64,000 nt of DNA. Source: Nemertoderma westbladi. Lineage: Eukaryota > Animalia > Xenacoelomorpha. The notes under the pieces were generated by a model. It had not been told where the DNA came from. It did not search any database and saw only the letters and a list, made by a program, of their open reading frames with translations. The stretch covers positions 1 through 64,000 of the forward strand of contig JAUCBJ010003066.1 of the NCBI GenBank assembly GCA_032718475.1, in the 5' to 3' direction. Of the stretch, positions 13,426 to 57,139 are shown one piece after another (position 1 is the first letter of the stretch; each line of letters opens with the position of its first letter). The position numbers and the translations under genes were made by a program.

Positions 13426-14493
13426 GGAAGTGTTGATGGTATCAATAATAATAATAATAATAAGAAAAAAATTATAAGAAAAATAAAAATTGGGCACCAA
13501 GTCCGACCAAAACTCCGGAATAAACGGCGTTTAATTATTGGACTTATTGCATTTGTGTTAGTGGCGACGGCAGCTGGTGTAATCGGTTGGTTTCTGGGAA
13601 ATCAAGACAATAAAAATAATTTAGGGGTACCAACATCCACAGCCCCAAATACTACCGGCAATGTTACTACTGGTTGGGCGAGCAACACTGTTAGAGTCGA
13701 TATGGACAATACGCTCACTCCCCCTCCCTTTACTTATCTTAATACTTTCCCTTCCACTACTCCCCTTCCCATTACTCCCGCCCCCACTACTCCCACTCCA
13801 ACTACTCCCCCTTCCAATCCCACAACCCCCCCTCCTACTACTCCCATTCCCACTGCTCCCACTCCCACTACTCCCCCTAGTACAACCACATTGTCCAATG
13901 ATGATATATTATATAGGAAGTTTATCAACTGCGATACAAGTGTGACAGAATGTCTACCATATGCTCATTCTGATACATGCGATAACCGAGCCGAGCAATA
14001 TACCACCAAAGCTAAAGTCAGTGGTCTACATAATCTAAATACTAAGGGCAAGAAACTGAGATGCGATGGAGGTTGGGTCCTATTTTATAGACGCATCGCC
14101 AACAGTAACAGCTACTTTTGGTATAAAAATAAAGATTTCGCAAATGGATTCGGAGATTCAGATAAATCTTACTTTCTCGGCGTGTATAGTATCTACGTGC
14201 TGACACGATATAAAAATTGTTTCTTAAAGATCAACTTTGACAAATCGTCGAGAATCTACAGCAACTTTACAGTGTCGGGGCCTCCGAGCTATTATCTAAT
14301 GATTACAAATTATACATATTCACATCCGACCGGTGTATTTGCTGATGGAACTTACGATCTCTCTGCCCTAAATAACTCTAAGTTTAGACAAAGAAACTAT
14401 GGATGGTGGACTGGGGGTGGAGGTACTCACCCAAATGAATGGAACCCTAAATCTCAAACATTAGAAATAAAACTGAAATGCTTGGTAACCTAA
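13426..14493 (+). CDS. Terminal exon of a type II membrane fibrinogen-related domain (FReD) protein: signal anchor, Pro/Thr mucin-like stalk, fibrinogen C domain
   Basis: The frame is open upstream of the listed GTG back to an acceptor-like ccatctttag| at 13425. RNKRR-LIIGLIAFVLVATAAGVIGWFLG is a signal anchor. CDGGWVLFYRR, FANGFG..YFLG, IYVLT, YSNFTV, GWW and TLEIKLK are fibrinogen C-domain motifs. There is no in-frame ATG before the TM segment, so an upstream exon is implied. Confidence 0.8.
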   Translation, partial: GSVDGINNNNNNKKKIIRKIKIGHQVRPKLRNKRRLIIGLIAFVLVATAAGVIGWFLGNQDNKNNLGVPTSTAPNTTGNVTTGWASNTVRVDMDNTLTPPPFTYLNTFPSTTPLPITPAPTTPTPTTPPSNPTTPPPTTPIPTAPTPTTPPSTTTLSNDDILYRKFINCDTSVTECLPYAHSDTCDNRAEQYTTKAKVSGLHNLNTKGKKLRCDGGWVLFYRRIANSNSYFWYKNKDFANGFGDSDKSYFLGVYSIYVLTRYKNCFLKINFDKSSRIYSNFTVSGPPSYYLMITNYTYSHPTGVFADGTYDLSALNNSKFRQRNYGWWTGGGGTHPNEWNPKSQTLEIKLKCLVT

Positions 14494-17400: not shown

Positions 17401-18666
17401 TACATTATAGATGAAACTGAAATGCTTGGTAACCTAAGTCTGATAATATATTAGAGATGAAACTGAAATGCTTGGTAACCTATGTCTGATGATACATTAG
17501 AGATGAAACTGAAATGCTTGGTAACCTAAGTCTGATGATACATTAGAGATGAAACTGAAATGCTTGGTAACCTATGTCTGATGATACATTAGAGATGAAA
17601 CTGAAATGCTTGGTAACCTAAGTCTGATGATACATTAGAGATGAAACTGAAATGCTTGGTAACCTATGTCTGATGATACATTAGAGATGAAACTGAAATG
17701 CTTGGTAACCTAAGTCTGATGATACATTAGAGATGAAACTGAAATGCTTGGTAACCTAAGTCTGATGATACATTATAGATGAAACTGAAATGCTTGGTAA
17801 CCTAAGTCTGATAATATATTAGAGATGAAACTGAAATGCTTGGTAACCTAAGTCTGATGATACATTAGAGATGAAACTGAAATGCTTGGTAACCTAAGTC
17901 TGATGATACATTATAGATGAAACTGAAATGCTTGGTAACCTAAGTCTGATGATACATTAGAGATGAAACTGAAATGCTTGGTAACCTATGTCTGATGATA
18001 CATTAGAGATGAAACTGAAATGCTTGGTAACCTAAGTCTGATGATACATTAGAGATGAAACTGAAATGCTTGGTAACCTAAGTCTGATGATACATTATAG
18101 ATGAAACTGAAATGCTTGGTAACCTAAGTCTGATAATACATTAGAGATGAAACTGAAATACTTTGTAACCTAAGTCTGATGATACATTAGAGATGAAACT
18201 GAAATGCTTAGTAACCTATGTCTGATGATACATTAGAGATGAAACTGAAATGCTTGGTAACCTAAGTCTGATGATACATTAGAGATGAAACTGAAATGCT
18301 TGGTAACCTAAGTCTGATGATACATTATAGATGAAACTGAAATGCTTGGTAACCTAAGTCTGATAATACATTAGAGATGAAACTGAAATACTTTGTAACC
18401 TAAGTCTGATGATACATTAGAGATGAAACTGAAATGCTTAGTAACCTATGTCTGATGATACATTAGAGATGAAACTGAAATGCTTGGTAACCTAAGTCTG
18501 ATGATACATTATAGATGAAACTGAAATGCTTGGTAACCTAAGTCTGATGATACATTAGAGATGAAACTGAAATGCTTGGTAACCTAAGTCTGATGATACA
18601 TTAGAGATGAAACTGAAATGCTTGGTAACCTAAGTCTGATGATACATTAGAGATGAAACTGAAATG
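14461..18666 (+). repeat. 46-bp satellite, about 91 copies, derived from the last codons and stop of the FReD gene
   Basis: Unit TTAGAGATGAAACTGAAATGCTTGGTAACCTAAGTCTGATGATACA. The first copy overlaps the CDS end. Confidence 0.95.
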
Positions 18667-20471: not shown

Positions 20472-20784
20472 TCAAGAACTCCCATGTATAGGTAGGTACT
20501 CCAAGTACAAAGACAATATAAATACGGTCTCGTCCACCTCTACTTCAGCCTTCTGTATCGCATTCAACCTTTTCTTCAGTAACTCCAACTGAACCTTCTC
20601 GGCGGGCGTCAGATAGTTCCTAACCTCCTGTATTTGTTCAGGGTCTGCATTGTCCTGGGTCAACTGTTCTACTATAGAATCAACCTTGGTTCCCTGATCC
20701 AACAACCTTCTATTGTCCGAAGCCTCTTTCTCGCGCCGTAACATTAGATTCAACAAGGTCTTGTAACAATGTCCGAGAGCCACT
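20472..20784 (-). CDS. POLR3C: POLR3C exon 5 (terminal)
   Basis: Acceptor tttcctacag|A GTG GCT CTC GGA CAT TGT TAC AAG. Reads (R)VALGHCYKTLLNLMLRREKE...VDETVFILSLYLEYLPIHGSS*. Confidence 0.92.
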
Positions 20785-23700
20785 CTGTAGGAAACAATAT
20801 AAAACAATGTCTGTGAGCCGCGCCACTCTATAGGAAACAATATAAAACAATGTCTGTGAGCCACTCTATAGGAAACAATATAAAACAATGTCTGTGAGCC
20901 ACTCTATAGGAAACAATATAAAACAATGTCTGTGAGCCGCGCCACTCTATAGGAAACAATATAAAACAATGTCTGTGAGCCGCGCCACTCTATAGGAAAC
21001 AATATAAAACAATGTCTGTGAGCCGCGCCACTCTATAGGAAACAATATAAAACAATGTCTGTGAGCCACTCTGTAGGAAACAATATAAAACAATGTCCGA
21101 GTGCCACTCTATAGGAAACAATATAAAACAATGTCTGTGAGCCACTCTATAGGAAACAATATAAAACAATGTCTGTGAGCCACTCTATAGGAAACAATAT
21201 AAAACAATGTCTGTGAGCCACTCTATAGGAAACAATATAAAACAATGTCTGTGAGCCGCGCCACTCTATAGGAAACAATATAAAACAATGTCTGTGAGCC
21301 ACTCTGTAGGAAACAATATAAAACAATGTCCGAGTGCCACTCTATAGGAAACAATATAAAACAATGTCTGTGAGCCACTCTATAGGAAACAATATAAAAC
21401 AATGTCTGTGAGCCACTCTATAGGAAACAATATAAAACAATGTCTGTGAGCCACTCTATAGGAAACAATATAAAACAATGTCTGTGAGCCACTCTATAGG
21501 AAACAATATAAAACAATGTCTGTGAGCCACTCTATAGGAAACAATATAAAACAATGTCCGAGAGCCACTCTGTAGGAAACAATATAAAACAATGTCCGAG
21601 TGCCACTCTATAGGAAACAATATAAAACAATGTCTGTGAGCCACTCTATAGGAAACAATATAAAACAATGTCTGTGAGCCACTCTATAGGAAACAATATA
21701 AAACAATGTCTGTGAGCCGCGCCACTCTATAGGAAACAATATAAAACAATGTCTGTGAGCCGCGCCACTCTATAGGAAACAATATAAAACAATGTCTGTG
21801 AGCCGCGCCACTCTATAGGAAACAATATAAAACAATGTCTGTGAGCCGCGCCACTCTATAGGAAACAATATAAAACAATGTCTGTGAGCCGCGCCACTCT
21901 ATAGGAAACAATATTAAACAGTGTCTGTGAGCCGCGCCACTCTATAGGAAACAATATAAAACAATGTCTGTGAGCCACTCTATAGGAAACAATATAAAAC
22001 AATGTCTGTGAGCCGCGCCACTCTATAGGAAACAATATAAAACAATGTCTGTGAGCCACTCTATAGGAAACAATATAAAACAATGTCTGTGAGCCGCGCC
22101 ACTCTATAGGAAACAATATAAAACAATGTCTGTGAGCCGCGCCACTCTATAGGAAACAATATAAAACAATGTCTGTGAGCCACTCTATAGGAAACAATAC
22201 AAAACAATGTCTGTGAGCAGCGCCACTCTATAGGAAACAATATAAAACAATGTCTATGAGCCGCGCCACTCTATAGGAAACAATATAAAACAATGTCTGT
22301 GAGCCACTCTATAGGAAACAATATAAAACAACGTCTGTGAGCCGCGCCACTCTATAGGAAACAATATAAAACAATGTCTGTGAGCCGCGCCACTCTATAG
22401 GAAACAATATAAAACAATGTCTGTGAGCCGCGCCACTCTATAGGAAACAATATAAAACAATGTCTGTGAGCCGCGCCACTCTATAGGAAACAATATAAAA
22501 CAATGTCTGTGAGCCACTCTATAGGAAACAATATAAAACAATGTCTGTGAGCCGCGCCACTCTATAGGAAACAATATAAAACAATGTCTGTGAGCCACTC
22601 TATAGGAAACAATATAAAACAATGTCTGTGAACCACTCTATAGGAAACAATATAAAACAATGTCTGTGAGCCGCGCCACTCTATAGGAAACAATATAAAA
22701 CAATGACTGTGAGCCACTCTATATGAAACAATATAAAACAATGACTGTGAGCCACTCTATAGGAAACAATATAAAACAATGTCTGTGAGCCGCGCCACTC
22801 TATATGAAACAATATAAAACAATGACTGTGAGCCACTCTATAGGAAACAATACAAAACAATGTCTGTGAGCCATTCTATAGGAAACAATATAAAACAATG
22901 TCTGTGAACCACTCTATAGGAAACAATATAAAACAATGTCTGTGAGCCACTCTATAGGAAACAATATAAAACAATGTCTGTGAGCCGCGCCACTCTATAG
23001 GAAACAATATAAAACAATGTCTGTGAGCCACTCTATAGGAAACAATATAAAACAATGTCTGTGAGTCGCGCCACTGTATAGGAAACAATATAAAACAATG
23101 TCTGTGAGTCGCGCCACTGTATAGGAAACAATATAAAACAATGTCTGTGAGCCACTCTATAGGAAACAATATAAAACAATGTCTGTGAGTCGCGCCACTG
23201 TATAGGAAACAATATAAAACAATGTCTGTGAGTCGCGCCACTGTATAGGAAACAATATAAAACAATGTATGTGAGCCGCGCCACTCTATAGGAAACAATA
23301 TAAAACAATGTCTGTGAGCCGCGCCACTGTATAGGAAACAATATAAAACAATGTCTGTGAGTCGCGCCACTGTATAGGAAACAATATAAAACAATGTCTG
23401 TGAGCCGCGCCACTCTATAGGAAACAATATAAAACAATGACTGTGAGCCACTCTATAGGAAACAATATAAAACAATGTCTGTGAGTCGCGCCACTGTATA
23501 GGAAACAATATAAAACAATGTCTGTGAGTCGCGCCACTGTATAGGAAACAATATAAAACAATGTATGTGAGCCGCGCCACTCTATAGGAAACAATATAAA
23601 ACAATGTCTGTGAGCCGCGCCACTGTATAGGAAACAATATAAAACAATGTCTGTGAGTCGCGCCACTGTATAGGAAACAATATAAAACAATGTCTGTGAG

Positions 23701-26700
23701 TCGCGCCACTGTATAGGAAACAATATAAAACAATGTATGTGAGCCGCGCCACTCTATAGCAAACAATATAAAACAATGTCTGTGAGCCGCGCCACTCTAT
23801 AGGAAACAATATAAAACAATGTCCGAGTGCCACTCTATAAGAAACAATATAAAACAGTGTCTGTGAGTCGCGCCACTGTATAGGAAACAATATAAAACAA
23901 TGTCTGTGAGCCGCGCCACTGTATAGGAAACAATATAAAACAATGTCTGTGAGCCACTCTATAGGAAACAATATAAAACAATGTCTGTGAGTCGCGCCAC
24001 TGTATAGGAAACAATATAAAACAATGTCTGTGAGTCGCGCCACTGTATAGGAAACAATATAAAACAATGTCTGTGAGCCACTCTATAGGAAACAATATAA
24101 AACAATGTCTGTGAGTCGCGCCACTGTATAGGAAACAATATAAAACAATGTCTGTGAGTCGCGCCACTGTATAGGAAACAATATAAAACAATGTATGTGA
24201 GCCGCGCCACTCTATAGGAAACAATATAAAACAATGTCTGTGAGCCGCGCCACTGTATAGGAAACAATATAAAACAATGTCTGTGAGTCGCGCCACTGTA
24301 TAGGAAACAATATAAAACAATGTCTGTGAGTCGCGCCACTGTATAGGAAACAATATAAAACAATGTCTGTGAGCCACTCTATAGGAAACAATATAAAACA
24401 ATGTCTGTGAGCCGCGCCACTGTATAGGAAACAATATAAAACAATGTCTGTGAGTCGCGCCACTGTATAGGAAACAATATAAAACAATATCTGTGAGCCG
24501 CGCCACTCTATAGGAAACAATATAAAACAATGTCTGTGAGCCACTCTATAGGAAACAATATAAAACAATGTCCGAGGGCCACTCTATAGGAAACAATATA
24601 AAACAATGTCTGTGAGCCGCGCCACTCTATAGGAAACAATATAAAACAATGTCTGTGAGCCGCGCCACTCTATAGGAAACAATATAAAACAATGTCTGTG
24701 AGCCGCGCCACTCTATAGGAAACAATATAAAACAATGTTTGTGAGCCGCGCCACTGTATAGGAAACAATATAAAACAATGTCTGTGAGCCGCGCCACTGT
24801 ATAGGAAACAATATAAAACAATGTCTGTGAGCCACTCTATAGGAAACAATATAAAACAATGTCTGTGAGCCGAGCCACTCTATAGGAAACAATATAAAAC
24901 AATGTCAGTGAGCCGCGCCACTCTATAGGAAACAATATAAAACAATGTCCGAGTGCCACTCTATAGGAAACAATATAAAACAATGTCTGTGAGCCGAGCC
25001 ACTCTATAGGAAACAATATAAAACAATGTCAGTGAGCCGCGCCACTCTATAGGAAACAATATAAAACAATGTCCGAGTGCCACTCTATAGGAAACAATAT
25101 AAAACAATGTCTGTGAGCCGCGCCACTCTATAGGAAACAATATAAAACAATGTCTGTGAGCCGCGCCACTCTATAGGAAACAATATAAAACAATGACTGT
25201 GAGCCACTCTATAGGAAACAATATAAAACAATGTCTGTGAGCCGAGCCACTCTATAGGAAACAATATAAAACAATGTCTGTGAGCCGCGCCACTCTATAG
25301 GAAACAATATAAAACAATGTCTGTGAGCCACTCTATAGGAAACAATATAAAACAATGTCTGTGAGCCGCGCCACTCTATAGGAAACAATATAAAACAATG
25401 TCTGTGAGCCGCTCTATAGGAAACAATATAAAACAATGTCTGTGAGCCACTCTATAGGAAACAATATAAAACAATGACTGTGAGCCACTCTATAGGAAAC
25501 AATATAAAACAATGTCTGTGAGTTGCGCCACTGTATAGGAAACAATATAAAACAATGTCTGTGAGCCGCGCCACTCTATAGGAAACAATATAAAACAATG
25601 TCTGTGAGTCGCGCCACTCTATAGGAAACAATATAAAACAATGTCTGTGAGTCGCGCCACTGTATAGGAAACAATATAAAACAATGTCTGTGAGCCGCGC
25701 CACTGTATAGGAAACAATATAAAACAATGTCTGTGAGCCGCGCCACTGTATAGGAAACAATATAAAACAATGTCTGTGAGCCACTCTATAGGAAACAATA
25801 TAAAACAATGTCTGTGAGCCGCGCCACTCTATAGGAAACAATATAAAACAATGTCCGAGGGCCACTCTATAGGAAACAATATAAAACAATGTCTGTGAGC
25901 CACTCTATAGGAAACAATATAAAACAATGTCTGTGAGCCACTCTATAGGAAACAATATAAAACAATGTCTGTGAGTCGCGCCACTGTATAGGAAACAATA
26001 TAAAACAATGTCTGTGAGCCGCGCCACTCTATAGGAAACAATATAAAACAATGTCTGTGAGCCGCGCCACTCTATAGGAAACAATATAAAACAATGACTG
26101 TGAGCCACTCTATAGGAAACAATATAAAACAATGTCTGTGAGTTGCGCCACTGTATAGGAAACAATATAAAACAATGTCTGTGAGCCGCGCCACTCTATA
26201 GGAAACAATATAAAACAATGTCTGTGAGTCGCGCCACTCTATAGGAAACAATATAAAACAATGTCTGTGAGTCGCGCCACTGTATAGGAAACAATATAAA
26301 ACAATGTCTGTGAGCCGCGCCACTGTATAGGAAACAATATAAAACAATGTCTGTGAGCCACTCTATAGGAAACAATATAAAACAATGTCTGTGAGCCGAG
26401 CCACTCTATAGGAAACAATATAAAACAATGTCTGTGAGCCACTCTATAGGAAACAATATAAAACAATGTCTGTGAGTCGCGCCACTGTATAGGAAACAAT
26501 ATAAAACAATGTCTGTGAGCCGCGCCACTGTATAGGAAACAATATAAAACAATGTCTGTGAGTCGCGCCACTGTATAGGAAACAATATAAAACAATGTCT
26601 GTGAGCCGCGCCACTCTATAGGAAACAATATAAAACAATGTCTGTGAGCCGCGCCACTCTATAGGAAACAATATAAAACAATGTCTGTGAGCCGCGCCAC

Positions 26701-29700
26701 TCTATAGGAAACAATATAAAACAATGTCTGTGAGCCGCGCCACTCTATAGGAAACAATATAAAACAATGTCTGTGAGCCACTCTATAGGAAACAATATAA
26801 AACAATGTCAGTGAGCCATTCTATAGGAAACAATATAAAACAATGTATGTGAGCCACTCTATAGGAAACAATATAAAACAATGTCTGTGAGCCGCGCCAC
26901 TGTATAGGAAACAATATAAAACAATGTCTGTGAGCCACTCTATAGGAAACAATATAAAACAATGTCTGTGAGCCACTCTATAGGAAACAATATAAAACAA
27001 TGTCAGTGAGCCATTCTATAGGAAACAATATAAAACAATGTATGTGAGCCACTCTATAGGAAACAATATAAAACAATGTCTGTGAGCCGCGCCACTGTAT
27101 AGGAAACAATATAAAACAATGTCTGTGAGTCACTCTATAGGAAACAATATAAAACAATGACTGTGAGCCACTCTATAGGAAACAATATAAAACAATGTCT
27201 GTGAGCCACTCTATAGGAAACAATATAAAACAATGTCTGTGAACCGCGCCACTCTATAGGAAACAATATAAAACAATGTCTGTGAACCGCGCCACTCTAT
27301 AGGAAACAATATAAAACAATGTCTGTGAGCCACTCTATAGGAAACAATATAAAACAATGTCTGTGAGCCACTCTATAAGAAACAATATAAAACAATGTCT
27401 GTGAGCCGCGCCACTCTATAGGAAACAATATAAAACAATGTCTGTGAGCCACTCTATAGGAAACAATATAAAACAATGTCTGTGAGTCACTCTATAGGAA
27501 ACAATATAAAACAATGTCTGTGAATCACTCTATAGGAAACAATATAAAACAATGACTGTGAGCCACTCTATAGGAAACAATATAAAACAATGTCTGTGAG
27601 CCACTCTATAGGAAACAATATAAAACAATGTCTGTGAACCACTCTATAGGAAACAATATAAAACAATGTCTGTGAGCCACTCTATAGGAAACAATATAAA
27701 ACAATGTCTGTGAGCCGCGCCACTCTATAGGAAACAATATAAAACAATGTCTGTGAGCCACTCTATAGGAAACAATATAAAACAATGTCCGAGTGCCACT
27801 CTATAGGAAACAATATAAAACAATGTCTGTGAGCCACTCTATAGGAAACAATATAAAACAATGTCTGTGAGCCGCGCCACTCTATAGGAAACAATATAAA
27901 ACAATGTCTGTGAGCCACTCTATAGGAAACAATATAAAACAATGTCTGTGAGCCGCGCCACTCTATAGGAAACAATATAAAACAATGTCTGTGAGCCACT
28001 CTATAGGAAACAATATAAAACAATGTCTGTGAGCCGCGCCACTCTATAGGAAACAATATAAAACAATGTCTGTGAGCCACTCTATAGGAAACAATATAAA
28101 ACAATGTCTGTGAGCCGCGCCACTCTATAGGAAACAATATAAAACAATGTCTGTGAGCCGCGCCACTCTATAGGAAACAATATAAAACAATGTCTGTGAG
28201 CCACTCTATAGGAAACAATACAAAACAATGTCTGTGAGCAGCGCCACTCTATAGGAAACAATATAAAACAATGTCTATGAGCCGCGCCACTCTATAGGAA
28301 ACAATATAAAACAATGTCTGTGAGCCACTCTATAGGAAACAATATAAAACAACGTCTGTGAGCCGCGCCACTCTATAGGAAACAATATAAAACAATGTCT
28401 GTGAGCCGCGCCACTCTATAGGAAACAATATAAAACAATGTCTGTGAGCCGCGCCACTCTATAGGAAACAATATAAAACAATGTCTGTGAGCCGCGCCAC
28501 TCTATAGGAAACAATATAAAACAATGTCTGTGAGCCACTCTATAGGAAACAATATAAAACAATGTCTGTGAGCCGCGCCACTCTATAGGAAACAATATAA
28601 AACAATGTCTGCGAGCCACTCTATAGGAAACAACATAAAACAATGTCTGTGAACCACTCTATAGGAAACAATATAAAACAATGTCTGTGAGCCGCGCCAC
28701 TCTATAGGAAACAATATAAAACAATGACTGTGAGCCACTCTATATGAAACAATATAAAACAATGACTGTGAGCCACTCTATAGGAAACAATATAAAACAA
28801 TGTCTGTGAGCCGCGCCACTCTATATGAAACAATATAAAACAATGACTGTGAGCCACTCTATAGGAAACAATACAAAACAATGTCTGTGAGCCATTCTAT
28901 AGGAAACAATATAAAACAATGTCTGTGAACCACTCTATAGGAAACAATATAAAACAATGTCTGTGAGCCACTCTATAGGAAACAATATAAAACAATGTCT
29001 GTGAGCCGCGCCACTCTATAGGAAACAATATAAAACAATGTCTGTGAGCCACTCTATAGGAAACAATATAAAACAATGTCTGTGAGTCGCGCCACTGTAT
29101 AGGAAACAATATAAAACAATGTCTGTGAGTCGCGCCACTGTATAGGAAACAATATAAAACAATGTCTGTGAGCCACTCTATAGGAAACAATATAAAACAA
29201 TGTCTGTGAGTCGCGCCACTGTATAGGAAACAATATAAAACAATGTCTGTGAGTCGCGCCACTGTATAGGAAACAATATAAAACAATGTATGTGAGCCGC
29301 GCCACTCTATAGGAAACAATATAAAACAATGTCTGTGAGCCGCGCCACTGTATAGGAAACAATATAAAACAATGTCTGTGAGTCGCGCCACTGTATAGGA
29401 AACAATATAAAACAATGTCTGTGAGCCGCGCCACTCTATAGGAAACAATATAAAACAATGACTGTGAGCCACTCTATAGGAAACAATATAAAACAATGTC
29501 TGTGAGTCGAGCCACTGTATAGGAAACAATATAAAACAATGTCTGTGAGTCGCGCCACTGTATAGGAAACAATATAAAACAATGTATGTGAGCCGCGCCA
29601 CTCTATAGGAAACAATATAAAACAATGTCTGTGAGCCGCGCCACTGTATAGGAAACAATATAAAACAATGTCTGTGAGTCGCGCCACTGTATAGGAAACA

Positions 29701-32700
29701 ATATAAAACAATGTCTGTGAGTCGCGCCACTGTATAGGAAACAATATAAAACAATGTATGTGAGCCGCGCCACTCTATAGCAAACAATATAAAACAATGT
29801 CTGTGAGCCGCGCCACTCTATAGGAAACAATATAAAACAATGTCCGAGTGCCACTCTATAAGAAACAATATAAAACAGTGTCTGTGAGTCGCGCCACTGT
29901 ATAGGAAACAATATAAAACAATGTCTGTGAGCCGCGCCACTGTATAGGAAACAATATAAAACAATGTCTGTGAGCCACTCTATAGGAAACAATATAAAAC
30001 AATGTCTGTGAGTCGCGCCACTGTATAGGAAACAATATAAAACAATGTCTGTGAGTCGCGCCACTGTATAGGAAACAATATAAAACAATGTCTGTGAGCC
30101 ACTCTATAGGAAACAATATAAAACAATGTCTGTGAGTCGCGCCACTGTATAGGAAACAATATAAAACAATGTCTGTGAGTCGCGCCACTGTATAGGAAAC
30201 AATATAAAACAATGTATGTGAGCCGCGCCACTCTATAGGAAACAATATAAAACAATGTCTGTGAGCCGCGCCACTGTATAGGAAACAATATAAAACAATG
30301 TCTGTGAGTCGCGCCACTGTATAGGAAACAATATAAAACAATGTCTGTGAGTCGCGCCACTGTATAGGAAACAATATAAAACAATGTCTGTGAGCCACTC
30401 TATAGGAAACAATATAAAACAATGTCTGTGAGCCGCGCCACTGTATAGGAAACAATATAAAACAATGTCTGTGAGTCGCGCCACTGTATAGGAAACAATA
30501 TAAAACAATATCTGTGAGCCGCGCCACTCTATAGGAAACAATATAAAACAATGTCTGTGAGCCACTCTATAGGAAACAATATAAAACAATGTCTGTGAGC
30601 CACTCTATAGGAAACAATATAAAACAATGTCCGAGGGCCACTCTATAGGAAACAATATAAAACAATGTCTGTGAGCCGCGCCACTCTATAGGAAACAATA
30701 TAAAACAATGTCTGTGAGCCGCGCCACTCTATAGGAAACAATATAAAACAATGTCTGTGAGCCGCGCCACTCTATAGGAAACAATATAAAACAATGTTTG
30801 TGAGCCGCGCCACTGTATAGGAAACAATATAAAACAATGTCTGTGAGCCGCGCCACTGTATAGGAAACAATATAAAACAATGTCTGTGAGCCACTCTATA
30901 GGAAACAATATAAAACAATGTCTGTGAGCCGAGCCACTCTATAGGAAACAATATAAAACAATGTCAGTGAGCCGCGCCACTCTATAGGAAACAATATAAA
31001 ACAATGTCCGAGTGCCACTCTATAGGAAACAATATAAAACAATGTCTGTGAGCCGAGCCACTCTATAGGAAACAATATAAAACAATGTCAGTGAGCCGCG
31101 CCACTCTATAGGAAACAATATAAAACAATGTCCGAGTGCCACTCTATAGGAAACAATATAAAACAATGTCTGTGAGCCGCGCCACTCTATAGGAAACAAT
31201 ATAAAACAATGTCTGTGAGCCGCGCCACTCTATAGGAAACAATATAAAACAATGACTGTGAGCCACTCTATAGGAAACAATATAAAACAATGTCTGTGAG
31301 CCGAGCCACTCTATAGGAAACAATATAAAACAATGTCTGTGAGCCGCGCCACTCTATAGGAAACAATATAAAACAATGTCTGTGAGCCACTCTATAGGAA
31401 ACAATATAAAACAATGTCTGTGAGCCGCGCCACTCTATAGGAAACAATATAAAACAATGTCTGTGAGCCGCTCTATAGGAAACAATATAAAACAATGTCT
31501 GTGAGCCACTCTATAGGAAACAATATAAAACAATGACTGTGAGCCACTCTATAGGAAACAATATAAAACAATGTCTGTGAGTTGCGCCACTGTATAGGAA
31601 ACAATATAAAACAATGTCTGTGAGCCGCGCCACTCTATAGGAAACAATATAAAACAATGTCTGTGAGTCGCGCCACTCTATAGGAAACAATATAAAACAA
31701 TGTCTGTGAGTCGCGCCACTGTATAGGAAACAATATAAAACAATGTCTGTGAGCCGCGCCACTGTATAGGAAACAATATAAAACAATGTCTGTGAGCCGC
31801 GCCACTGTATAGGAAACAATATAAAACAATGTCTGTGAGCCACTCTATAGGAAACAATATAAAACAATGTCTGTGAGCCGCGCCACTCTATAGGAAACAA
31901 TATAAAACAATGTCCGAGGGCCACTCTATAGGAAACAATATAAAACAATGTCTGTGAGCCACTCTATAGGAAACAATATAAAACAATGTCTGTGAGCCAC
32001 TCTATAGGAAACAATATAAAACAATGTCTGTGAGTCGCGCCACTGTATAGGAAACAATATAAAACAATGTCTGTGAGCCGCGCCACTCTATAGGAAACAA
32101 TATAAAACAATGTCTGTGAGCCGCGCCACTCTATAGGAAACAATATAAAACAATGACTGTGAGCCACTCTATAGGAAACAATATAAAACAATGTCTGTGA
32201 GTTGCGCCACTGTATAGGAAACAATATAAAACAATGTCTGTGAGCCGCGCCACTCTATAGGAAACAATATAAAACAATGTCTGTGAGTCGCGCCACTCTA
32301 TAGGAAACAATATAAAACAATGTCTGTGAGTCGCGCCACTGTATAGGAAACAATATAAAACAATGTCTGTGAGCCGCGCCACTGTATAGGAAACAATATA
32401 AAACAATGTCTGTGAGCCGCGCCACTGTATAGGAAACAATATAAAACAATGTCTGTGAGCCACTCTATAGGAAACAATATAAAACAATGTCTGTGAGCCG
32501 CGCCACTCTATAGGAAACAATATAAAACAATGTCCGAGGGCCACTCTATAGGAAACAATATAAAACAATGTCTGTGAGCCACTCTATAGGAAACAATATA
32601 AAACAATGTCTGTGAGCCACTCTATAGGAAACAATATAAAACAATGTCTGTGAGTCGCGCCACTGCATAGGAAACAATATAAAACAATGTCTGTGAGCCG

Positions 32701-35700
32701 CGCCACTCTATAGGAAACAATATAAAACAATGTCTGTGAGCCGCGCCACTCTATAGGAAACAATATAAAACAATGACTGTGAGCCACTCTATAGGAAACA
32801 ATATAAAACAATGTCTGTGAGTTGCGCCACTGTATAGGAAACAATATAAAACAATGTCTGTGAGCCGCGCCACTCTATAGGAAACAATATAAAACAATGT
32901 CTGTGAGTCGCGCCACTCTATAGGAAACAATATAAAACAATGTCTGTGAGTCGCGCCACTGTATAGGAAACAATATAAAACAATGTCTGTGAGCCGCGCC
33001 ACTGTATAGGAAACAATATAAAACAATGTCTGTGAGCCGCGCCACTGTATAGGAAACAATATAAAACAATGTCTGTGAGCCACTCTATAGGAAACAATAT
33101 AAAACAATGTCTGTGAGCCGAGCCACTCTATAGGAAACAATATAAAACAATGTCTGTGAGCCACTCTATAGGAAACAATATAAAACAATGTCTGTGAGTC
33201 GCGCCACTGTATAGGAAACAATATAAAACAATGTCTGTGAGCCGCGCCACTGTATAGGAAACAATATAAAACAATGTCTGTGAGCCACTCTATAGGAAAC
33301 AATATAAAACAATGTCTGTGAGCCGCGCCACTCTATAGGAAACAATATAAAACAATGTCTGTGAGCCGCGCCACTCTATAGGAAACAATATAAAACAATG
33401 TCTGTGAGCCGCGCCACTCTATAGGAAACAATATAAAACAATGTCTGTGAGCCGCGCCACTCTATAGGAAACAATATAAAACAATGTCTGTGAGCCACTC
33501 TATAGGAAACAATATAAAACAATGTCAGTGAGCCATTCTATAGGAAACAATATAAAACAATGTATGTGAGCCACTCTATAGGAAACAATATAAAACAATG
33601 TCTGTGAGCCGCGCCACTGTATAGGAAACAATATAAAACAATGTCTGTGAGCCACTCTATAGAAAACAATATAAAACAATGTCTGTGAGCCACTCTATAG
33701 GAAACAATATAAAACAATGTCAGTGAGCCATTCTATAGGAAACAATATAAAACAATGTATGTGAGCCACTCTATAGGAAACAATATAAAACAATGTCTGT
33801 GAGCCGCGCCACTGTATAGGAAACAATATAAAACAATGTCTGTGAGTCACTCTATAGGAAACAATATAAAACAATGACTGTGAGCCACTCTATAGGAAAC
33901 AATATAAAACAATGTCTGTGAGCCACTCTATAGGAAACAATATAAAACAATGTCTGTGAACCGCGCCACTCTATAGGAAACAATATAAAACAATGTCTGT
34001 GCACCGCGCCACTCTATAGGAAACAATATAAAACAATGTCTGTGAGCCACTCTATAGGAAACAATATAAAACAATGTCTGTGAGCCACTCTATAAGAAAC
34101 AATATAAAACAATGTCTGTGAGCCGCGCCACTCTATAGGAAACAATATAAAACAATGTCTGTGAGCCACTCTATAGGAAACAATATAAAACAATGTCTGT
34201 GAGTCACTCTATAGGAAACAATATAAAACAATGTCTGTGAATCACTCTATAGGAAACAATATAAAACAATGACTGTGAGCCACTCTATAGGAAACAATAT
34301 AAAACAATGTCTGTGAGCCACTCTATAGGAAACAATATAAAACAATGTCTGTGAACCACTCTATAGGAAACAATATAAAACAATGTCTGTGAGCCACTCT
34401 ATAGGAAACAATATAAAACAATGTCTGTGAGCCGCGCCACTCTATAGGAAACAATATAAAACAATGTCTGTGAGCCACTCTATAGGAAACAATATAAAAC
34501 AATGTCCGAGTGCCACTCTATAGGAAACAATATAAAACAATGTCTGTGAGCCACTCTATAGGAAACAATATAAAACAATGTCTGTGAGCCACTCTATAGG
34601 AAACAATATAAAACAATGTCTGTGAGCCACTCTATAGGAAACAATATAAAACAATGTCTGTGAGCCACTCTATAGGAAACAATATAAAACAATGTCTGTG
34701 AGCCGCGCCACTCTATAGGAAACAATATAAAACAATGTCTGTGAGCCACTCTATAGGAAACAATATAAAACAATGACTGTGAGCCGCGCCATTCTATAGG
34801 AAACAATATAAAACAATGTCTGTGAGCCACTCTATAGGAAACAATATAAAACAATGTCTGTGAGCCACTCTATAGGAAACAATATAAAACAATGACTGTG
34901 AGCCACTCTATAGGAAACAATATAAAACAATGTCTGTGGGCCACTCTATAGGAAACAATAGAAAACAATGTCTGTGAGCCACTCTATAGGAAACAATATA
35001 AAACAATGTCTGTGAGCCACTCTATAGGAAACAATATAAAACAATGTCTGTGGGCCACTCTATAGGAAACAATATAAAACAATGTCTGTGAGCCACTCTA
35101 TAGGAAACAATATAAAACAATGTCCGAGTGCCACTCTATAGGAAACAATATAAAACAATGTCTGTGAGCCACTCTATAGGAAACAATATAAAACAATGTC
35201 TGTGAGCCACTCTATAGGAAACAATATAAAACAATGTCCGAGTGCCACTCTATAGGAAACAATATAAAACAATGTCTGTGAGCCACTCTATAGGAAACAA
35301 TATAAAACAATGTCTGTGAGCCACTCTATAGGAAACAATATAAAACAATGACTGTGAGCCACTCTATAGGAAACAATATAAAACAATGTCTGTGAGCCAC
35401 TCTATAGGAAACAATATAAAACAATGTCTGTGAGCCGCGCCACTCTATAGGAAACAATATAAAACAATGTCTGTGAGCCACTCTATAGGAAGCAATATAA
35501 AACAATGTCTGTGAGCCACTCTATAGGAAACAATATAAAACAATGACTGTGAGCCATTCTATAGGAAACAATATAAAACAATGTCTGTGAGCCGCTCTAT
35601 AGGAAACAATATAAAACAATGTATGTCTGTGAGCCGCGCCACTCTATAGGAAACAATATAAAACAATGTCCGAGTGCCACTCTATAGGAAACAATATAAA

Positions 35701-38700
35701 ACAATGACAGTGAGCCGCGCCACTCTATAGGAAACAATATAAAACAATGTATGTGAGCCACTCTATAGGAAACAATATAAAACAATGTCTGTGAGCCGCG
35801 CCACTCTATAGGAAACAATATAAAACAATGACTGTGAGCCACTCTATAGGAAACAATATAAAACAATGACTGTGAGCCGCGCCACTCTATAGGAAACAAT
35901 ATAAAACAATGTCTGTGAGCCACTCTATAGGAAACAATATAAAACAATGACTGTGAGCCGCGCCACTCTATAGGAAACAATATAAAACAATGTATGTGAG
36001 CCACTCTATAGGAAACAATATAAAACAATGTCTGTGAGCCGCGCCACTCTATAGGAAACAATATAAAACAATGTCTGTGAGCCGCGCCACTCTATAGGAA
36101 ACAATATAAAACAATGTCTGTGAGCCGCTCTATAGGAAACAATATAAAACAATGTCTGTGAGCCACTCTATAGGAAACAATATAAAACAATGTATGTGAG
36201 CCACTCTATAGGAAACAATATAAAACAATGTCTGTGAGCCGCGCCACTCTATAGGAAACAATATAAAACAATGACTGTGAGCCACTCTATAGGAAACAAT
36301 ATAAAACAATGACTGTGAGCCGCGCCACTCTATAGGAAACAATATAAAACAATGTATGTGAGCCACTCTATAGGAAACAATATAAAACAATGACTGTGAG
36401 CCGAGCCACTGTATAGGAAACAATATAAAACAATGTCTGTGAGCCACTCTATAGGAAACAATATAAAACAATGACTGTGAGCCGCGCCACTCTATAGGAA
36501 ACAATATAAAACAATGTATGTGAGCCACTCTATAGGAAACAATATAAAACAATGTCTGTGAGCCGCGCCACTGTATAGGAAACAATATAAAACAATGACT
36601 GTGAGCCGCGCCACTCTATAGGAAACAATATAAAACAATGTATGTGAGCCACTCTATAGGAAACAATATAAAACAATGTCTGTGAGCCGCGCCACTGTAT
36701 AGGAAACAATATAAAACAATGTCTGTGAGCCGCTCTATAGGAAACAATATAAAACAATGTCTGTGAGCCACTCTATAGGAAACAATATAAAACAATGTCT
36801 GTGAGCCGCGCCACTCTATAGGAAACAATATAAAACAATGTCTGTGAGCCACTCTATAGGAAACAATATAAAACAATGTCTGTGAGCCACTCTATAGGAA
36901 ACAATATAAAACAATGTCTGTGAGCCACTCTATAGGAAACAATATAAAACAATGTCTGTGAGCCGCTCTATACGAAACAATATAAAACAATGTCTGTGAG
37001 CCACTCTATAGGAAACAATATAAAACAACGTCTGTGAGTCGCGCCACTGTATAGGAAACAATATAAAACAATGTCTGTGAGCCGCGCCACTCTATAGGAA
37101 ACAATATAAAACAATGTCTGTGAGCCGCGCCACTCTATAGGAAACAATATAAAACAATGTCTGTGAGCCACTCTATAGGAAACAATATAAAACAATGTCT
37201 GTGAGCCGCTCTATAGGAAACAATATAAAACAATGTCCGAGTGCCACTCTATAGGAAACAATATAAAACAATGTCTGTGAGCCACTCTATAGGAAACAAT
37301 ATAAAACAATGTCTGTGAGCCGAGCCACTCTATAGGAAACAATATAAAACAATGTCTGTGAGCCACTCTATAGGAAACAATATAAAACAATGTCTGTGAG
37401 CCACTCTATAGGAAACAATATAAAACAATGTCTGTGAGCCGCGCCACTCTATAGGAAACAATATAAAACAATGTCTGTGAGCCATTCTATAGGAAACAAT
37501 ATAAAACAATGTCTGTGAGCCGCGCCACTCTATAGGAAACAATATAAAACAATGTCTGTGAGCCACTCTATAGGAAACAATATAAAACAATGTCTGTGAG
37601 CCACTCTATAGGAAACAATATAAAACAATGTCTGTGAGCCACTCTATAGGAAACAATATAAAACAATGACTGTGAGCCGCGCCATTCTATAGGAAACAAT
37701 ATAAAACAATGTCTGTGAGCCACTCTATAGGAAACAATATAAAACAATGTCTGTGAGCCGCGCCACTCTATAGGAAACAATATAAAACAATGTCTGTGAG
37801 CCACTCTATAGAAAACAATATAAAACAATGTCTGTGAGCCGCGCCACTCTATAGGAAACAATATAAAACAATGTCTGTGAGCCGCGCCACTCTATAGGAA
37901 ACAATATAAAACAATGTCTGTGAGCCACTCTATAGGAAACAATATAAAACAATGTCTGTGAGCCGCGCCACTCTATAGGAAACAATATAAAACAATGTCT
38001 GTGAGCCGCTCTATAGGAAACAATATAAAACAATGTCTGTGAGCCGCGCCACTCTATAGGAAACAATATAAAACAATGTCTGTGAGCCGCTCTATAGGAA
38101 ACAATATAAAACAATGTCTGTGAGCCGCGCCACTCTATAGGAAACAATATAAAACAATGTCTGTGAGCCACTCTATAGGAAACAATATAAAACAATGTCT
38201 GTGAGCCGCGCCACTCTATAGGAAACAATATAAAACAATGTATGTGAGCCACTCCATAGGAAACAATATAAAACAATGTCTGTGAGCCGCGCCACTCTAT
38301 AGGAAACAATATAAAACAATGTCTGTGAGCCGCGCCACTCTATAGGAAACAATATAAAACAATGTCTGTGAGCCGCGCCACTCTATAGGAAACAATACAA
38401 AACAATGTCTGTGAGCCGCTCTATAGGAAACAATACAAAACAATGTCTGTGAGCCGCGCCACTCTATAGGAAACAATATAAAACAATGTCTGTGAGCCAC
38501 TCTATAGGAAACAATATAAAACAATGTCTGTGAGCCGCGCCACTCTATAGGAAACAATATAAAACAATGTCTGTGAGCCACTCTATAGGAAACAATATAA
38601 AACAATGTCTGTGAGCCACTCTATAGGAAACAATATAAAACAATGTCTGTGAGCCGTGCCACTCTATAGGAAACAATATAAAACAATGTCTGTGAGCCAC

Positions 38701-41700
38701 TCTATAGGAAACAATATAAAACAATGTCTGTGAGCCACTCTATAGGAAACAATATAAAACAATGTCTGTGAGTCGCTCTATAGGAAACAATATAAAACAA
38801 TGACTGTGAGCCGCGCCACTCTATAGGAAACAATATAAAACAATGACTGTGAGCCGCGCCACTGTATAGGAAACAATATAAAACAATGACTGTGAGCCAC
38901 TCTATAGGAAACAATATAAAACAATGTCTGTGAGCCGAGCCACTCTATAGGAAACAATATAAAACAATGTCTGTGAGCCACTCTATGGGAAACAATATAA
39001 AACAATGTCTGTGAGCCGCGCCACTCTATAGGAAACAATATAAAACAATGTCTGTGAGCCGCGCCACTCTATAGGAAACAATATAAAACAATGTCTGTGA
39101 GCCGCGCCACTCTATAGGAAACAATATAAAACAATGACTGTGAGCCACTCTATAGGAAACAATATAAAACAATGTCTGTGAGCCGAGCCACTCTATAGGA
39201 AACAATATAAAACAATAAATGTGAGCCACTCTATAGGAAACAATATAAAACAATGTCTGTGAGCCGCGCCACTCTATAGGAAACAATATAAAACAATGTC
39301 TGTGAGCCACTCTATGGGAAACAATATAAAACAATGTCTGTGAGCCGCGCCACTCTATAGGAAACAATATAAAACAATGTCTGTGAGCCACTCTATAGGA
39401 AACAATATAAAACAATGTCTGTGAGCCACTCTATAGGAAACAATATAAAACAATGTCTGTGAGCCACTCTATAGGAAACAATATAAAACAATGTCCGAGT
39501 GCCACTCTATAGGAAACAATATAAAACAATGTCTGTGAGCCGCGCCACTCTATAGGAAACAATATAAAACAATGACTGTGAGCCGCGCCACTCTATAGGA
39601 AACAATATAAAACAATGTCTGTGAGCCACTCTATAGGAAACAATATAAAACAATGTCTGTGAGCCACTCTATGGGAAACAATATAAAACAATGTCTGTGA
39701 GCCGCGCCACTCTATAGGAAACAATATAAAACAATGTCTGTGAGCCACTCTATAGGAAACAATATAAAACAATGTCTGTGAGCCACTCTATAGGAAACAA
39801 TATAAAACAATGTCTGTGAGCCACTCTATAGGAAACAATATAAAACAATGTCTGTGAGCCGTGCCACTCTATAGGAAACAATATAAAACAATGTCTGTGA
39901 GCCACTCTATAGGAAACAATATAAAACAATGTCTGTGAGCCACTCTATAGGAAACAATATAAAACAATGTCTGTGAGTCGCTCTATAGGAAACAATATAA
40001 AACAATGACTGTGAGCCGCGCCACTCTATAGGAAACAATATAAAACAATGACTGTGAGCCGCGCCACTGTATAGGAAACAATATAAAACAATGACTGTGA
40101 GCCACTCTATAGGAAACAATATAAAACAATGTCTGTGAGCCGAGCCACTCTATAGGAAACAATATAAAACAATGTCTGTGAGCCACTCTATGGGAAACAA
40201 TATAAAACAATGTCTGTGAGCCGCGCCACTCTATAGGAAACAATATAAAACAATGTCTGTGAGCCGCTCTATAGGAAACAATATAAAACAATGTCTGTGA
40301 GCCGCGCCACTCTATAGGAAACAATATAAAACAATGACTGTGAGCCACTCTATAGGAAACAATATAAAACAATGTCTGTGAGCCGAGCCACTCTATAGGA
40401 AACAATATAAAACAATAAATGTGAGCCACTCTATAGGAAACAATATAAAACAATGTCTGTGAGCCGCGCCACTCTATAGGAAACAATATAAAACAATGTC
40501 TGTGAGCCACTCTATGGGAAACAATATAAAACAATGTCTGTGAGCCGCGCCACTCTATAGGAAACAATATAAAACAATGTCTGTGAGCCACTCTATAGGA
40601 AACAATATAAAACAATGTCTGTGAGCCACTCTATAGGAAACAATATAAAACAATGTCTGTGAGCCACTCTATAGGAAACAATATAAAACAATGTCCGAGT
40701 GCCACTCTATAGGAAACAATATAAAACAATGTCTGTGAGCCGCGCCACTCTATAGGAAACAATATAAAACAATGACTGTGAGCCGCGCCACTCTATAGGA
40801 AACAATATAAAACAATGTCTGTGAGCCACTCTATAGGAAACAATATAAAACAATGTCTGTGAGCCACTCTATGGGAAACAATATAAAACAATGTCTGTGA
40901 GCCGCGCCACTCTATAGGAAACAATATAAAACAATGTCTGTGAGCCACTCTATAGGAAACAATATAAAACAATGTCTGTGAGCCGCTCTATAGGAAACAA
41001 TATAAAACAATGTATGTCTATGAGCCACTCTATAGGAAACAATATAAAACAATGTCTGTGAGCCGCGCCACTCTATAGGAAACAATATAAAACAATGTCT
41101 GTGAGCCACTCTATAGGAAACAATATAAAACAATGTCTGTGAGCCACTCTATAGGAAACAATATAAAACAATGTCTGTGAGCCGCGCCACTCTATAGGAA
41201 ACAATATAAAACAATGTCTGTGAGCCACTCTATAGGAAACAATATAAAACAATGTCTGTGAGCCACTCTATAGGAAACAATATAAAACAATGTCTGTGAG
41301 CCACTCTATAGGAAACAATATAAAACAATGTCTGTGAGCCACTCTATAGAAAACAATATAAAACAATGACTGTGAGCCACTCTATAGGAAACAATATAAA
41401 ACAATGACTATACTTTTTTCCCTAGACGTCACCCACCCACCTGACTACTTTCTGGATATCGACCGAGAAGTAATATAGAGTCCGACTTGGCGACCGATCG
41501 GATGAGCGAGGAATCTCCCGCAAGTAAACGTAAGATTCCAGGAACATCTGGTACAATAACTGTTTGGTTTCCTTCGGCGGCAATAAAGCTATCGATTCTA
41601 TCTGCAATAAATATATTACAGTCAAAGAGCTTCTAACCAAAACACTAAACTAATTCTCATTTTATTTGTGCCCCCCCCCCCTGATCCCTTCTCACCTGTT

Positions 41701-43097
41701 TCTGATCCAGGGCTCCCTTCTCTAGTATCAACCGAAACAGTCGGGCTGACTTCGACCCGAATCTCTCCATCACTATGGTAACCAGAGTCTCCCGTACCAG
41801 CAGTTGTACCCCGGACTTTATATTAACGGAGAACATCCCACCCCCGTCGTCCCCCGCCCGGGACACAAACGAGTTCGGGTCCTCAGCCATCATGTTGAGA
41901 TAGGTGGTAACCATGGTTACGGAAGACTTAGTGTTGCCGGGGAGACCAGCGTGGACGCGGTGTGTGCTTATCGGTTCGGTGGAGGCGGCCCGGTAGACCG
42001 TGGTAACGCTGAGTCGCAGCACCGTCTGCACGATCTCGCCCGCTATTGGTCCGTAAGCGTTGGTTGTCACGGTAACTAGGAGTTGGTCCCTCAGTGATTG
42101 GTGGAAACGGTCCGGGTTGATGTACCAACAGGAGGGGTCTGTCGGGAATTAATAATCAGTAATAAATTAATATGATTGATTATGGTGGACACAAAACATA
42201 ATGTACCTTTAAATAATAATAATTTTAAAAGAAAATTAGCGGAAATTATTAGATTATAACTCCGATATATTATCCAACTCTCATTCTACTAGGAATTCAA
42301 TACTCGAGTCTGTGGTTAATAAATATTCGTTCACCTTCCGGGCTTTTAGTTTCCGGAGTTCCGGAGAACTTCCGTTTCACTCCGCGGTCATTCAACTCGG
42401 TGAAATCGCTGTCCCGGACAAGGAAACCCGAGTCGGTATCCTGTTGCAGCAGAACGGGGGCCGTCGGAGTGGTTTGGGAGACCGCCGGACACCGACGTAG
42501 GAAGTGGGTGTGTACGAGATCGACGAAGGTCTCTCGGATGGAGTCCAGATCGCCGCTGTTCCCCTCCGCGATCAACCGATCGCGCACGCGACTGATCAGC
42601 TCACCCCCCGTTAGTTCCCCCTTCATAAGCAATTCCTCGATAATGAGTTCACCGGTGTCCTGATAGAGGCGTTGTATTACCATGGCATAACGAGGGAATC
42701 TACAAACACAATACAAAAGGCTATATAGTTATCAGTTATCAAAATTCCCGAAAGAGTCCTTACTTTCAGAGGCTTCACAAATTTGAAAAATCCAATCACT
42801 GCTTTGCTGTACTTGCAGACATTGAGATCTAACTAACCTTGGCCGCAGTAATATAGAAGACGGATTCACCGTATAATAGACCAGACCATCCCCGCCTATC
42901 TTGAACCCAGCTATGTGTTGGTGTATAAGAACGCAGAGCGAGTTTTTTACTTGACTCGGTTTCATATTTAGCCGACGGCACGAATCCCGAAGAGTGAGTG
43001 ATCCTTTAGCCAACATTCCCGCCACAACCTCGCCGATCGTACTCCCGTATAACTCGCTACAAACAACTTTGCATAAACTGATCTCACGTTGCGCCAT
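20472..43097 (-). CDS. POLR3C: DNA-directed RNA polymerase III subunit RPC3, complete gene. Exons 43097-42838, 42699-42335, 42138-41696, 41601-41441, 20784-20472; about 513 aa
   Basis: All introns are GT-AG with matching phases (1542 nt CDS). Motifs LCVLIHQHI, TGELIIEELL, WYINPDRFHQSLRDQ, GDDGGGMFSVN, ERFGSKSARLFRL, LREIPRSSDRSPSRTLY and EVEVDETVFIL match RPC3/RPC62. Confidence 0.95.
20766..41408 (-). repeat. 38/43-bp satellite, about 500 copies, filling POLR3C intron 4; unit is the 3' splice site plus the start of exon 5
   Basis: Minus-strand unit CATTGTTTTATATTGTTTCCTATAG|AGTGGC(GCGGC)TCACAGA, compared with the true junction CATTGTTTTATATTGTTTCCTACAG|AGTGGCTCTCGGACATTGTT. Confidence 0.97.
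41441..41601 (-). CDS. POLR3C: POLR3C exon 4
   Basis: ttattgcag|IESIALLPPKETKQLLYQMFLESYVYLREIPRSSDRSPSRTLYYFSVDIQKVV(R)|gtgggt. Confidence 0.93.
41696..42138 (-). CDS. POLR3C: POLR3C exon 3
   Basis: cccgacag|(D)PSCWYINPDRFHQSLRDQ...LEKGALDQKQ|gtgaga. Confidence 0.93.
42335..42699 (-). CDS. POLR3C: POLR3C exon 2
   Basis: tttgtag|(R)FPRYAMVIQRLYQDTGELIIEELL...KSPE|gtgaac. Confidence 0.92.
42838..43097 (-). CDS. POLR3C: POLR3C exon 1
   Basis: MAQREISLCKVVCSELYG...SILLRP(R)|gttagt. Confidence 0.92.
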
Positions 43098-43866
43098 GGT
43101 ACGGCCTCGGCCTATATAATCGTGGTACCCAACTGCCCAAACCATACGGGACAGCACGACACCGTATCGTATCCAACAGGATATGCCAACTCAGCTCACT
43201 GCACTACACTACGGTAGCTCGATTAGCACTAAGATACTAAACGAATAGGCCTACCGGGAACGCAAGGCGCCAGGCCAGCAACACTCTTGGATAAATATAA
43301 AATTAAGTCCCAGCAACTTACTTTGATCTGAAGAATTTGAATTTCCCTCCTTTATTTCTTTGCATATCTAATCAATAACAGTAGACTGAAGAGGGATATT
43401 TAAATTATTGTACGTTCTCAGATCATGCTGTCATGCAGATTACCGGTACAACATACCACAGTACGAGTACAACTCCTCTAGTACCAGTATTGTCACTGAC
43501 ACAGCAAACTACAATTCATATAGCTTTCAAGTGTCGAGGCAGGTGACGGCGTTGGCCTTGGTAGAGCGCGGGTTGGCGTCTAGGCGTTGGCGTTGGTAGA
43601 GCGCGGGTTGGCGTCTAGGCGTTGGCGTTGGTAGAGCGCAGTTGTAATCTCAGAAGATTCCGGTATCATATACTAATAGAGTGATATAGTCCAGTAGTCT
43701 GGTAGTCGTAGTAGGCCTATTATAACAATAGGAGGCCTCCCCGACTGCCCGAGGGGAGGCACTCCACTTGCAGACTTGGTTCTGTCCTTAAACTATTACT
43801 GCATTACAATACTGCAATACAATTAGCGTTACCAGTCAGTAACCGTCGTCCCACGAGACGGGACCC
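43098..43866. promoter_or_regulatory. Putative bidirectional promoter and 5' UTRs between POLR3C and XPA
   Basis: Divergent start codons about 770 bp apart. Contains a 35-bp unit in 2.5 copies (43551-43640) and a GC hairpin (43735-43760). Confidence 0.65.
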
Positions 43867-44084
43867 ATGCACAAAATGTCGCGCCAAGAACAAAATACCC
43901 AGATCGAAATTTCTGTTAAACAACAGAAGAGAATCGATGATAATAAAACGGCAGCGCTTAAACGCCGCGATGCGCGTCTGAAACGCCGAGCCAATACATC
44001 GGACGTCGCAGAAGCAACGTCGAAAATAGGGCGAAATGAAGATGGTACCGGTAGTGATATGACGTCACTCGCTGCAAACGTGAG
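43867..44084 (+). CDS. XPA: XPA exon 1
   Basis: [20 protein letters not shown] resembles the XPA N-terminal helix. The phase-2 donor AG|gttagt matches the phase of exon 2. Confidence 0.85.
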
Positions 44085-56900: not shown

Positions 56901-57139
56901 TAATGTTGATAATGTGTCACATATCAGTGCCCATGATTAGATTGGGAAGGTTCTTTGACTTAATTCCTTCATAATTTGATACAGAATAGAACAAATAGTG
57001 CAATTTGAAAAAAAACGCAATTGTTTAAATCCGGAGCGTTTCGTATAATCATATAAATCTTCAGCGAAATAGACGACAAGGTAGACCTAGTCGTTTGGGA
57101 GGGAACAAAGAGCCATACAAGGCCACAACTACAACCAAG

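Follow-up and report, generated by a model that had tools for sequence, protein, structure and literature searches.

Intron 4 of POLR3C in Nemertoderma westbladi is an array of 509 copies of its own 3' splice site region, the last of which is used in a spliced contig

Tandem repeats whose unit joins the end of an intron to the start of the following exon have been described in amphioxus under the name of 'mirages'. The globin gene BflGb6 carries 3-6 units of 150-160 bp made of the intron's 3' end and the exon start (PMC3087553), and further amphioxus cases are BflGb9, Adh3, troponin C and PGBD5 (PMC3087553, PMC3902484). Across loci the units measure 10-160 bp, splicing is reported to be undisturbed, array length is unstable and the boundary copies are excluded from homogenisation (PMC3087553); the same undisturbed splicing is reported for the Adh, troponin C and PGBD5 mirages (PMC3902484). 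On the donor side, intron 18 of human ABCA7 contains a tandem repeat of variable copy number (VNTR) whose donor-bearing unit has 25 bp and which reaches about 427 units or 10.7 kb (PMC5954066), and the 37-bp VNTR of human F7 IVS7 holds 5' pseudo-sites that are silent though functional (PMC1557585). Repeats at or near exon borders have also been treated more generally (PMC2812944, PMC10078293). Here we analysed a 64,000-nt stretch of Nemertoderma westbladi DNA (contig JAUCBJ010003066.1, positions 1 to 64,000; the window), in which intron 4 of POLR3C, the gene for RPC3, is filled with copies of its own acceptor. This intron belongs to the known mirage class, is extreme in size and has a replicate in the adjacent gene XPA. 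The novelty implied by a first-pass annotation of the letters was therefore too high.

POLR3C lies on the minus strand, to which all its coordinates refer, and comprises five exons: the coding part of exon 1 from the ATG (43097-42838; Pfam HTH_9, E 3e-11), exon 2 (42699-42335; open frame), exon 3 (42138-41696; RNA_pol_Rpc82 and POLR3C_WHD), exon 4 (41601-41441; POLR3C_WHD) and the coding part of exon 5 up to the stop (20784-20472; RPC3_helical). The four GT-AG introns measure 138, 196, 94 and 20,656 nt; with 41441 connected to 20784, the reading frame stays open over 513 aa. RPC3 models of Pfam match four of the five exons, and the domains (Rpc82 helix-turn-helix, core, C-terminal winged-helix, helical-hairpin) follow each other in the known order, as befits a member of this family. 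Residues 1-50 of exon 4 correspond to residues 380-429 of human RPC3 and residues 1-95 of exon 5 to 434-528, so the exon 4/5 junction is colinear with the human protein. A protein search with exon 5 returned 108 representatives; five of the ten that were looked up had an organism name, all of them animals, at 39-43%. The corresponding search with exon 3 gave no match among 519 candidates. None of 307 pattern matches in metagenome contigs was confirmed as a related locus, and protein and metagenome-contig searches together yielded no close relative. Downstream of the stop, the 3' untranslated region probably extends to about 20307, with an AATAAA at 20346.

The anatomy of intron 4 can be read directly from the assembly. 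After 34 unique bases (41407-41440, with the donor AG|gtgggt at 41441/41440) follow 509 head-to-tail units (20765-41406), which account for 99.8% of the 20.7 kb (Tandem Repeats Finder score 29730). The units fall into a class of 38 nt (250 units), a class of 43 nt (256 units) and three others; there are 61 variants, and units are about 98% identical to the consensus of their own class. Each combines the last 25 nt of the intron with the beginning of exon 5 (13 nt in the 38-nt unit); compared with the true junction, the major unit has 3 mismatches in 38 sites. Copies of the repeat elsewhere within the 64-kb window were not found. The microhomology CATTGTT occurs on the intron side at the start of the first unit (41406-41400) and on the exon side at the array end inside exon 5 (20771-20765), just as the first-pass annotation had noticed. 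Its description of about 500 tandem acceptor copies, only the last continuing into the RPC3 C-terminus, likewise agrees with the 509 units and the colinear human match; the donor was placed correctly, but the array starts 34 nt behind it and not about 32 nt.

When the acceptors of the 509 units were counted, 419 had an in-register TAG, four an in-register CAG, 84 a shifted TACAG|TG and two no acceptor AG at all. An in-register YAG is thus present in 423 units, namely 422 decoys and the used last copy. The unit had been annotated as carrying TAG, which holds for 419 of the 422 in-register decoys and fails for the used site itself (AG at 20785-20786, ctacag|AGTGGC, in the last unit), which is a CAG. 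The first decoy AG (41382-41383, exon-like start 41381), which lacks a yUnAy motif 18-40 nt upstream, would indeed produce the 59-nt intron that had been pointed out. Truncated products had also been foreseen for the decoys in general, and early stops follow from 421 of the 422, after a median of 25 codons. The exception is the decoy at 20865 (AG at 20866-20867), the only one in frame with exon 5, which would add 27 aa.

On a larger scale, the array contains two blocks of about 6 kb (21794-34580) with 163 and 149 units, 140 of them matching, that differ by a 16-unit insertion or deletion and eight smaller changes; such a block duplication is as expected for unequal exchange. Only one of the 250 38-nt units is identical to the terminal unit. 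Together with the 98% identity to the class consensus, this matches concerted evolution with exclusion of the boundary copy, and the exclusion is limited to the 3' end, because the first unit is only one base off the consensus.

The junction was directly observed in contigs of run X4 (sample S3). None of the eight runs found by the run search is on record as RNA; X4 and a further run, X5, carry the label 'DNA?' and were judged as spliced from contigs that skip introns. In a contig of 1447 nt (depth 1003), the last base of exon 4 (41441) is followed by a loose end of 30 letters with the sequence of 20784-20755, through CATTGTTACAAG. Since bases unique to exon 5 are included, this loose end represents the last copy and not a decoy; 478 contig letters lie past the junction. 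The transition from 41441 to 20784 into conserved exon 5, predicted from the letters beforehand, was thereby borne out. Introns 1-3 are omitted exactly in the X4 contigs (including the joint 42699/42838), the word share was 0.69 versus 0.68 expected for exons only, and the transcript showed no other letter differences from the locus. The 20 nt after the exon-4 junction, TCGGACATTGTTAC versus CACAGACATTGTTTT, would distinguish the junction types. X4 has no cover at the array bin 41333-41396, and a stretch without cover was not counted as evidence.

The same design is directly visible in XPA, which is arranged head-to-head with POLR3C (43876-55834, plus strand; Pfam XPA_N and XPA_C). Exon 3 (46370-46529, plus strand; XPA_C), spliced in X4 and X5, matches residues 133-184 of human XPA and gave 11 matches at 58-70% in a protein search; exon 4 (55717-55834, plus strand) matches residues 188-224 and starts inside the last copy of a 27-nt repeat. 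In the assembly sequence, about 205 copies of this unit, in which the acceptor is combined with the initial 10 nt of exon 4 (50200-55726, plus strand), form the 3' part of intron 3 (46530-55716, 9187 nt). Here a sequence close to the exon 4 start comes after 149 AGs; 79 decoys match it at 10 of 10 positions, 29 are identical to the true site, a TAG, over -7 to +10, and no decoy keeps the frame through exon 4. In the spliced contig of X5, exon 3 is connected with the last 27-nt copy (loose end 55719-55748). Run X8 had no contig matching XPA exon 3, and a simple scan of the window, not including a 34-bp array, did not find exon 5.

Altogether, intron 4 is a 509-copy mirage minisatellite from which the one spliced contig that was seen uses the last copy, and we consider it likely that the array is neutral debris, tolerated since the exon behind it chooses the acceptor. 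As to its origin, we infer that misalignment at CATTGTT duplicated 38 nt spanning the junction. Unequal exchange would then have enlarged and homogenised the tract, giving rise to the class with a 5-nt insertion and to the duplication of the 6-kb block, while coding constraint would have held the last copy unchanged. The 5 nt before CATTGTT read ACAGA in 405 and ACAGT in 43 of 508 units, compared with TCGGA in the exon and ATAGT in the intron flank. As the letters that differ from TCGGA occur in ATAGT, the unit endings can be read as a mosaic of exon and intron flank. Under the Rogers model of intron gain (as in PMC3087553), tandem genomic duplication of an AG/GT segment provides donor and acceptor alike. 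This candidate was rejected: AGGT is absent from the unit, and the array does not include the donor, which is located in the 34 unique nt.

Regarding the choice of acceptor, the decoys offer a pyrimidine-rich tract, a YAG and usually a branch-like CTCAC, but downstream of them lies only further U-rich repeat, which lacks a strong donor as well as AATAAA or ATTAAA. Intron 4 contains no GTRAG, AGGT, AATAAA or ATTAAA, and a yUnAy motif stands at -30 in 393 of the 423 in-register acceptors. The last copy alone adjoins the purine-rich exon 5 and the 3' end, where exon-bound factors and 3'-end processing may recruit U2AF/U2. Over the first 100 nt past the acceptor, exon 5 has 59% purine and six GAR motifs, while the two decoys examined have 42-44% and two GAR. 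The sequence of the site does not single out the used acceptor, because three CAG decoys are passed over, including one that reproduces all 38 nt of the true junction unit (21557-21594, exon-like start 21569) and is skipped in the X4 contig. RNA folding was rejected as a cause of the choice, as predicted pairing of the tract is equal in decoys and used site: the mean unpaired value was 0.49 in 60 decoys sampled from 416 and 0.49 at the true site, and the first decoy is predicted to be more paired (0.30), compared with 0.34 at the working acceptor of exon 4. The first-pass annotation had set the skipped acceptors against the rule that the first suitable AG behind a branch point is normally used. 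Scanning to the AG acts once the branch point is chosen (PMC10946897), so the rule is not violated here.

Several observations weigh against choice of the acceptor by the exon behind it. Exon 3, with 46% purine and one GAR, is no richer in purine than the decoys, and the putative enhancer and 3'-end coupling behind such exon definition are suggested by composition only. With 94-196 nt, the other introns are in a range where the first copy, giving 59 nt, would be preferred under intron definition. An XPA contig of X4 (depth 1238) ends four letters past the end of exon 3 (46529-46533), whereas X5 continues into exon 4; the X4 contig may have been cut off by a variant or by a break in the assembly, or may branch there, for instance to a different acceptor, of which the 34-bp array has 165 candidates reading YAG|GTTCA. 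Moreover, the RNA data are assembled contigs, which lose rare variants including any rare use of decoys, and the POLR3C junction comes from one run of sample S3, the array from samples S1 and S2.

A different role of the array, in which the repeat now supplies the branch point and has become indispensable, appears unlikely. The CTCAC at -30 of the used acceptor sits in the mutated exon-derived part of the preceding unit, where the exon reads CTCTC, and the first copy is without the motif; repeat debris could therefore act as the branch-point supplier. If true, such a supply would act as a ratchet by which mirages become locked in and can grow, throughout the genome in this lineage.

The next explanation to be weighed against choice by the downstream exon is that decoys are used substantially and that their products, with an early stop and up to 20 kb of repeat in the last exon, are degraded or retained in the nucleus so that correct mRNA accumulates. 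The early stops after 421 of 422 in-register decoys and the branch-like motif, tract and YAG in most of them would fit, as would the one-unit-retained, frameshifted isoform produced by the ABCA7 donor VNTR (PMC5954066) and the X4 XPA contig that stops just beyond the junction. Yet the POLR3C contig is unbroken across the junction at a depth of 1003, the in-frame decoy at 20865 would evade stop-codon surveillance and is not in the contig, and heavy losses from splicing would be expected to oppose growth to 509 copies in an essential gene. We therefore hold this explanation to be rather improbable.

It is also doubtful, and we give it little credence, that the array is a polymorphic expansion and that the animals behind the RNA had few or no extra copies, in which case the skipping of hundreds of acceptors would be unproven. 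The separate samples (X4 from S3, array from S1 and S2) and the length instability of mirages (PMC3087553) speak for it. Read data, in which contig depth is a rough guide and no strict copy number, point in both directions. In X1, the possible source run of the assembly, four repeat pieces had 294, 42, 37 and 40 times the unique depth versus 316, 37, 31 and 34.5 assembled copies of the same words (ratios 0.93-1.19), which fits the assembled counts without halving. In X2, from the independent sample S2, the repeat reached 61-81 times, which is 0.18-0.24 of the expected depth and scales to about 93-124 units. However, X3, from the same sample, sums to about 1000-fold, so that the two S2 runs disagree; one X3 contig passes from a repeat unit into exon 5 of POLR3C. 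The repeat is multi-copy in both genomic samples (S1 and S2), at tens to hundreds times the unique depth in contigs that are unspliced, and carriers of the long allele, too, have to produce RPC3.

Much less probable is that the used site wins by its local sequence, CAG over TAG at -3 together with two exon bases. The used site is a CAG and 419 of 422 decoys are TAG, but three CAG decoys are skipped, one of them identical across 38 nt, the acceptor of POLR3C intron 1 is a TAG, and the true site of XPA is a TAG with 29 identical decoys. CAG versus TAG as the sole cause of the choice was rejected on these grounds. Stepwise removal of intron 4 by recursive splicing, with the copies as stepping stones, is suggested by the long intron with its regular acceptors and could operate in XPA, whose 27-nt units read AG|GT; the POLR3C units have AG|AGT, with a one-base frame shift expected upon re-splicing, and as AG followed by GT, as needed for a zero-length exon, occurs nowhere in intron 4 (0 AGGT), we rejected it there and regard it as highly implausible. 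That the array length is an assembly artefact, a possibility already raised in the first-pass annotation and to which the near-duplicate 6-kb block and the possible use of X1 as assembly source might point, is scarcely credible, given 61 unit variants in ordered patterns, blocks that differ by a 16-unit insertion or deletion plus eight smaller changes, and X1 depth ratios of 0.93-1.19 for all four repeat pieces.

Some further observations concern POLR3C itself. A 47-nt contig of X4 (depth 35 versus 510) joins a donor AAA|gtaagt at 43322 (43322-43338, minus strand) to exon 2 at 42699, skipping the ATG-bearing part of exon 1. Each of X1, X2 and X3 also has a short contig that is similar to a segment of intron 2 (42229-42261, with three mismatches in X1 and X2) and runs on into a TTAGGG-type repeat; it probably represents another locus.

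Beyond the two genes, eight tandem arrays with units of 22-46 bp make up 41.6 kb or 65% of the window (14458-63998). Several lie within XPA introns without touching exons, and some are purely intronic or intergenic. One single-frame gene (13426-18666, plus strand) encodes 355 aa, including a hydrophobic stretch and a fibrinogen C domain; at its end stands a 46-bp array in which the final codons and the stop codon recur in about 91 copies. Local tandem amplification is hence not specific to splice sites, as eight arrays, the one at the stop codon among them, fill 65% of the window. At the window end, a 31-bp array (62977-64000, plus strand), whose end lies outside the window, shows a pyrimidine-rich stretch followed by AG dinucleotides; as a guess, it might be a third boundary repeat. 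An 866-aa open frame with DUF1759 (365-2965, minus strand) is gag-like, presumably as in BEL/Pao retrotransposons, and decayed coding-like sequence beside the 34-bp array (56000-57140, minus strand) resembles a non-long-terminal-repeat retroelement by eye.

The locus amounts to a natural competition experiment: in an essential gene of an organism with otherwise short introns, hundreds of near-identical acceptors are situated upstream of the acceptor that is used, and XPA provides a replicate. In the spliced contigs, the 59-nt first intron and 421 further acceptors are ignored in POLR3C, and about 150 in XPA. Such a constellation could be used to measure the weight of downstream exon context versus site sequence or transcription order in 3' splice site choice. 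It is also a warning to annotators and assemblers, because short-read assemblies collapse introns of this kind.

At the level of titles and abstract openings, with subscription journals thinly covered, literature searches brought up no array that carries an acceptor in hundreds of copies. Compared with the mirages, intron 4 shows at least five of seven features: a boundary-spanning unit, a unit length within 10-160 bp, partial retention of the splice signal, concerted evolution and splicing at the exon-adjacent copy, the latter resting on one run of one sample. Both the amphioxus mirages and intron 4 consist of tandem units of intron end plus exon start in which many but not all copies carry the splice signal, and in both the boundary copy escapes homogenisation. 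They differ in scale, BflGb6 having 3-6 units of 150-160 bp and intron 4 having 509 units of 38 or 43 nt in a gene whose other introns are below 200 nt, and the acceptor concerned is that of the inferred last exon, unlike in BflGb6. The F7 VNTR resembles intron 4 in that its unit spans an exon-intron boundary, but 5'-to-3' scanning to the first donor, which explains F7, cannot explain the use of the last of 423 acceptors. The ABCA7 VNTR likewise has hundreds of splice-site units and the canonical copy beside the real exon; there the donor side is affected, the first transcribed copy is used and aberrant isoforms are measurable, whereas in intron 4 it is the acceptor side and the last transcribed copy. 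Among the cases compared, intron 4 is the largest mirage of the acceptor type, with 509 units versus 3-6 in the lancelet globin gene.

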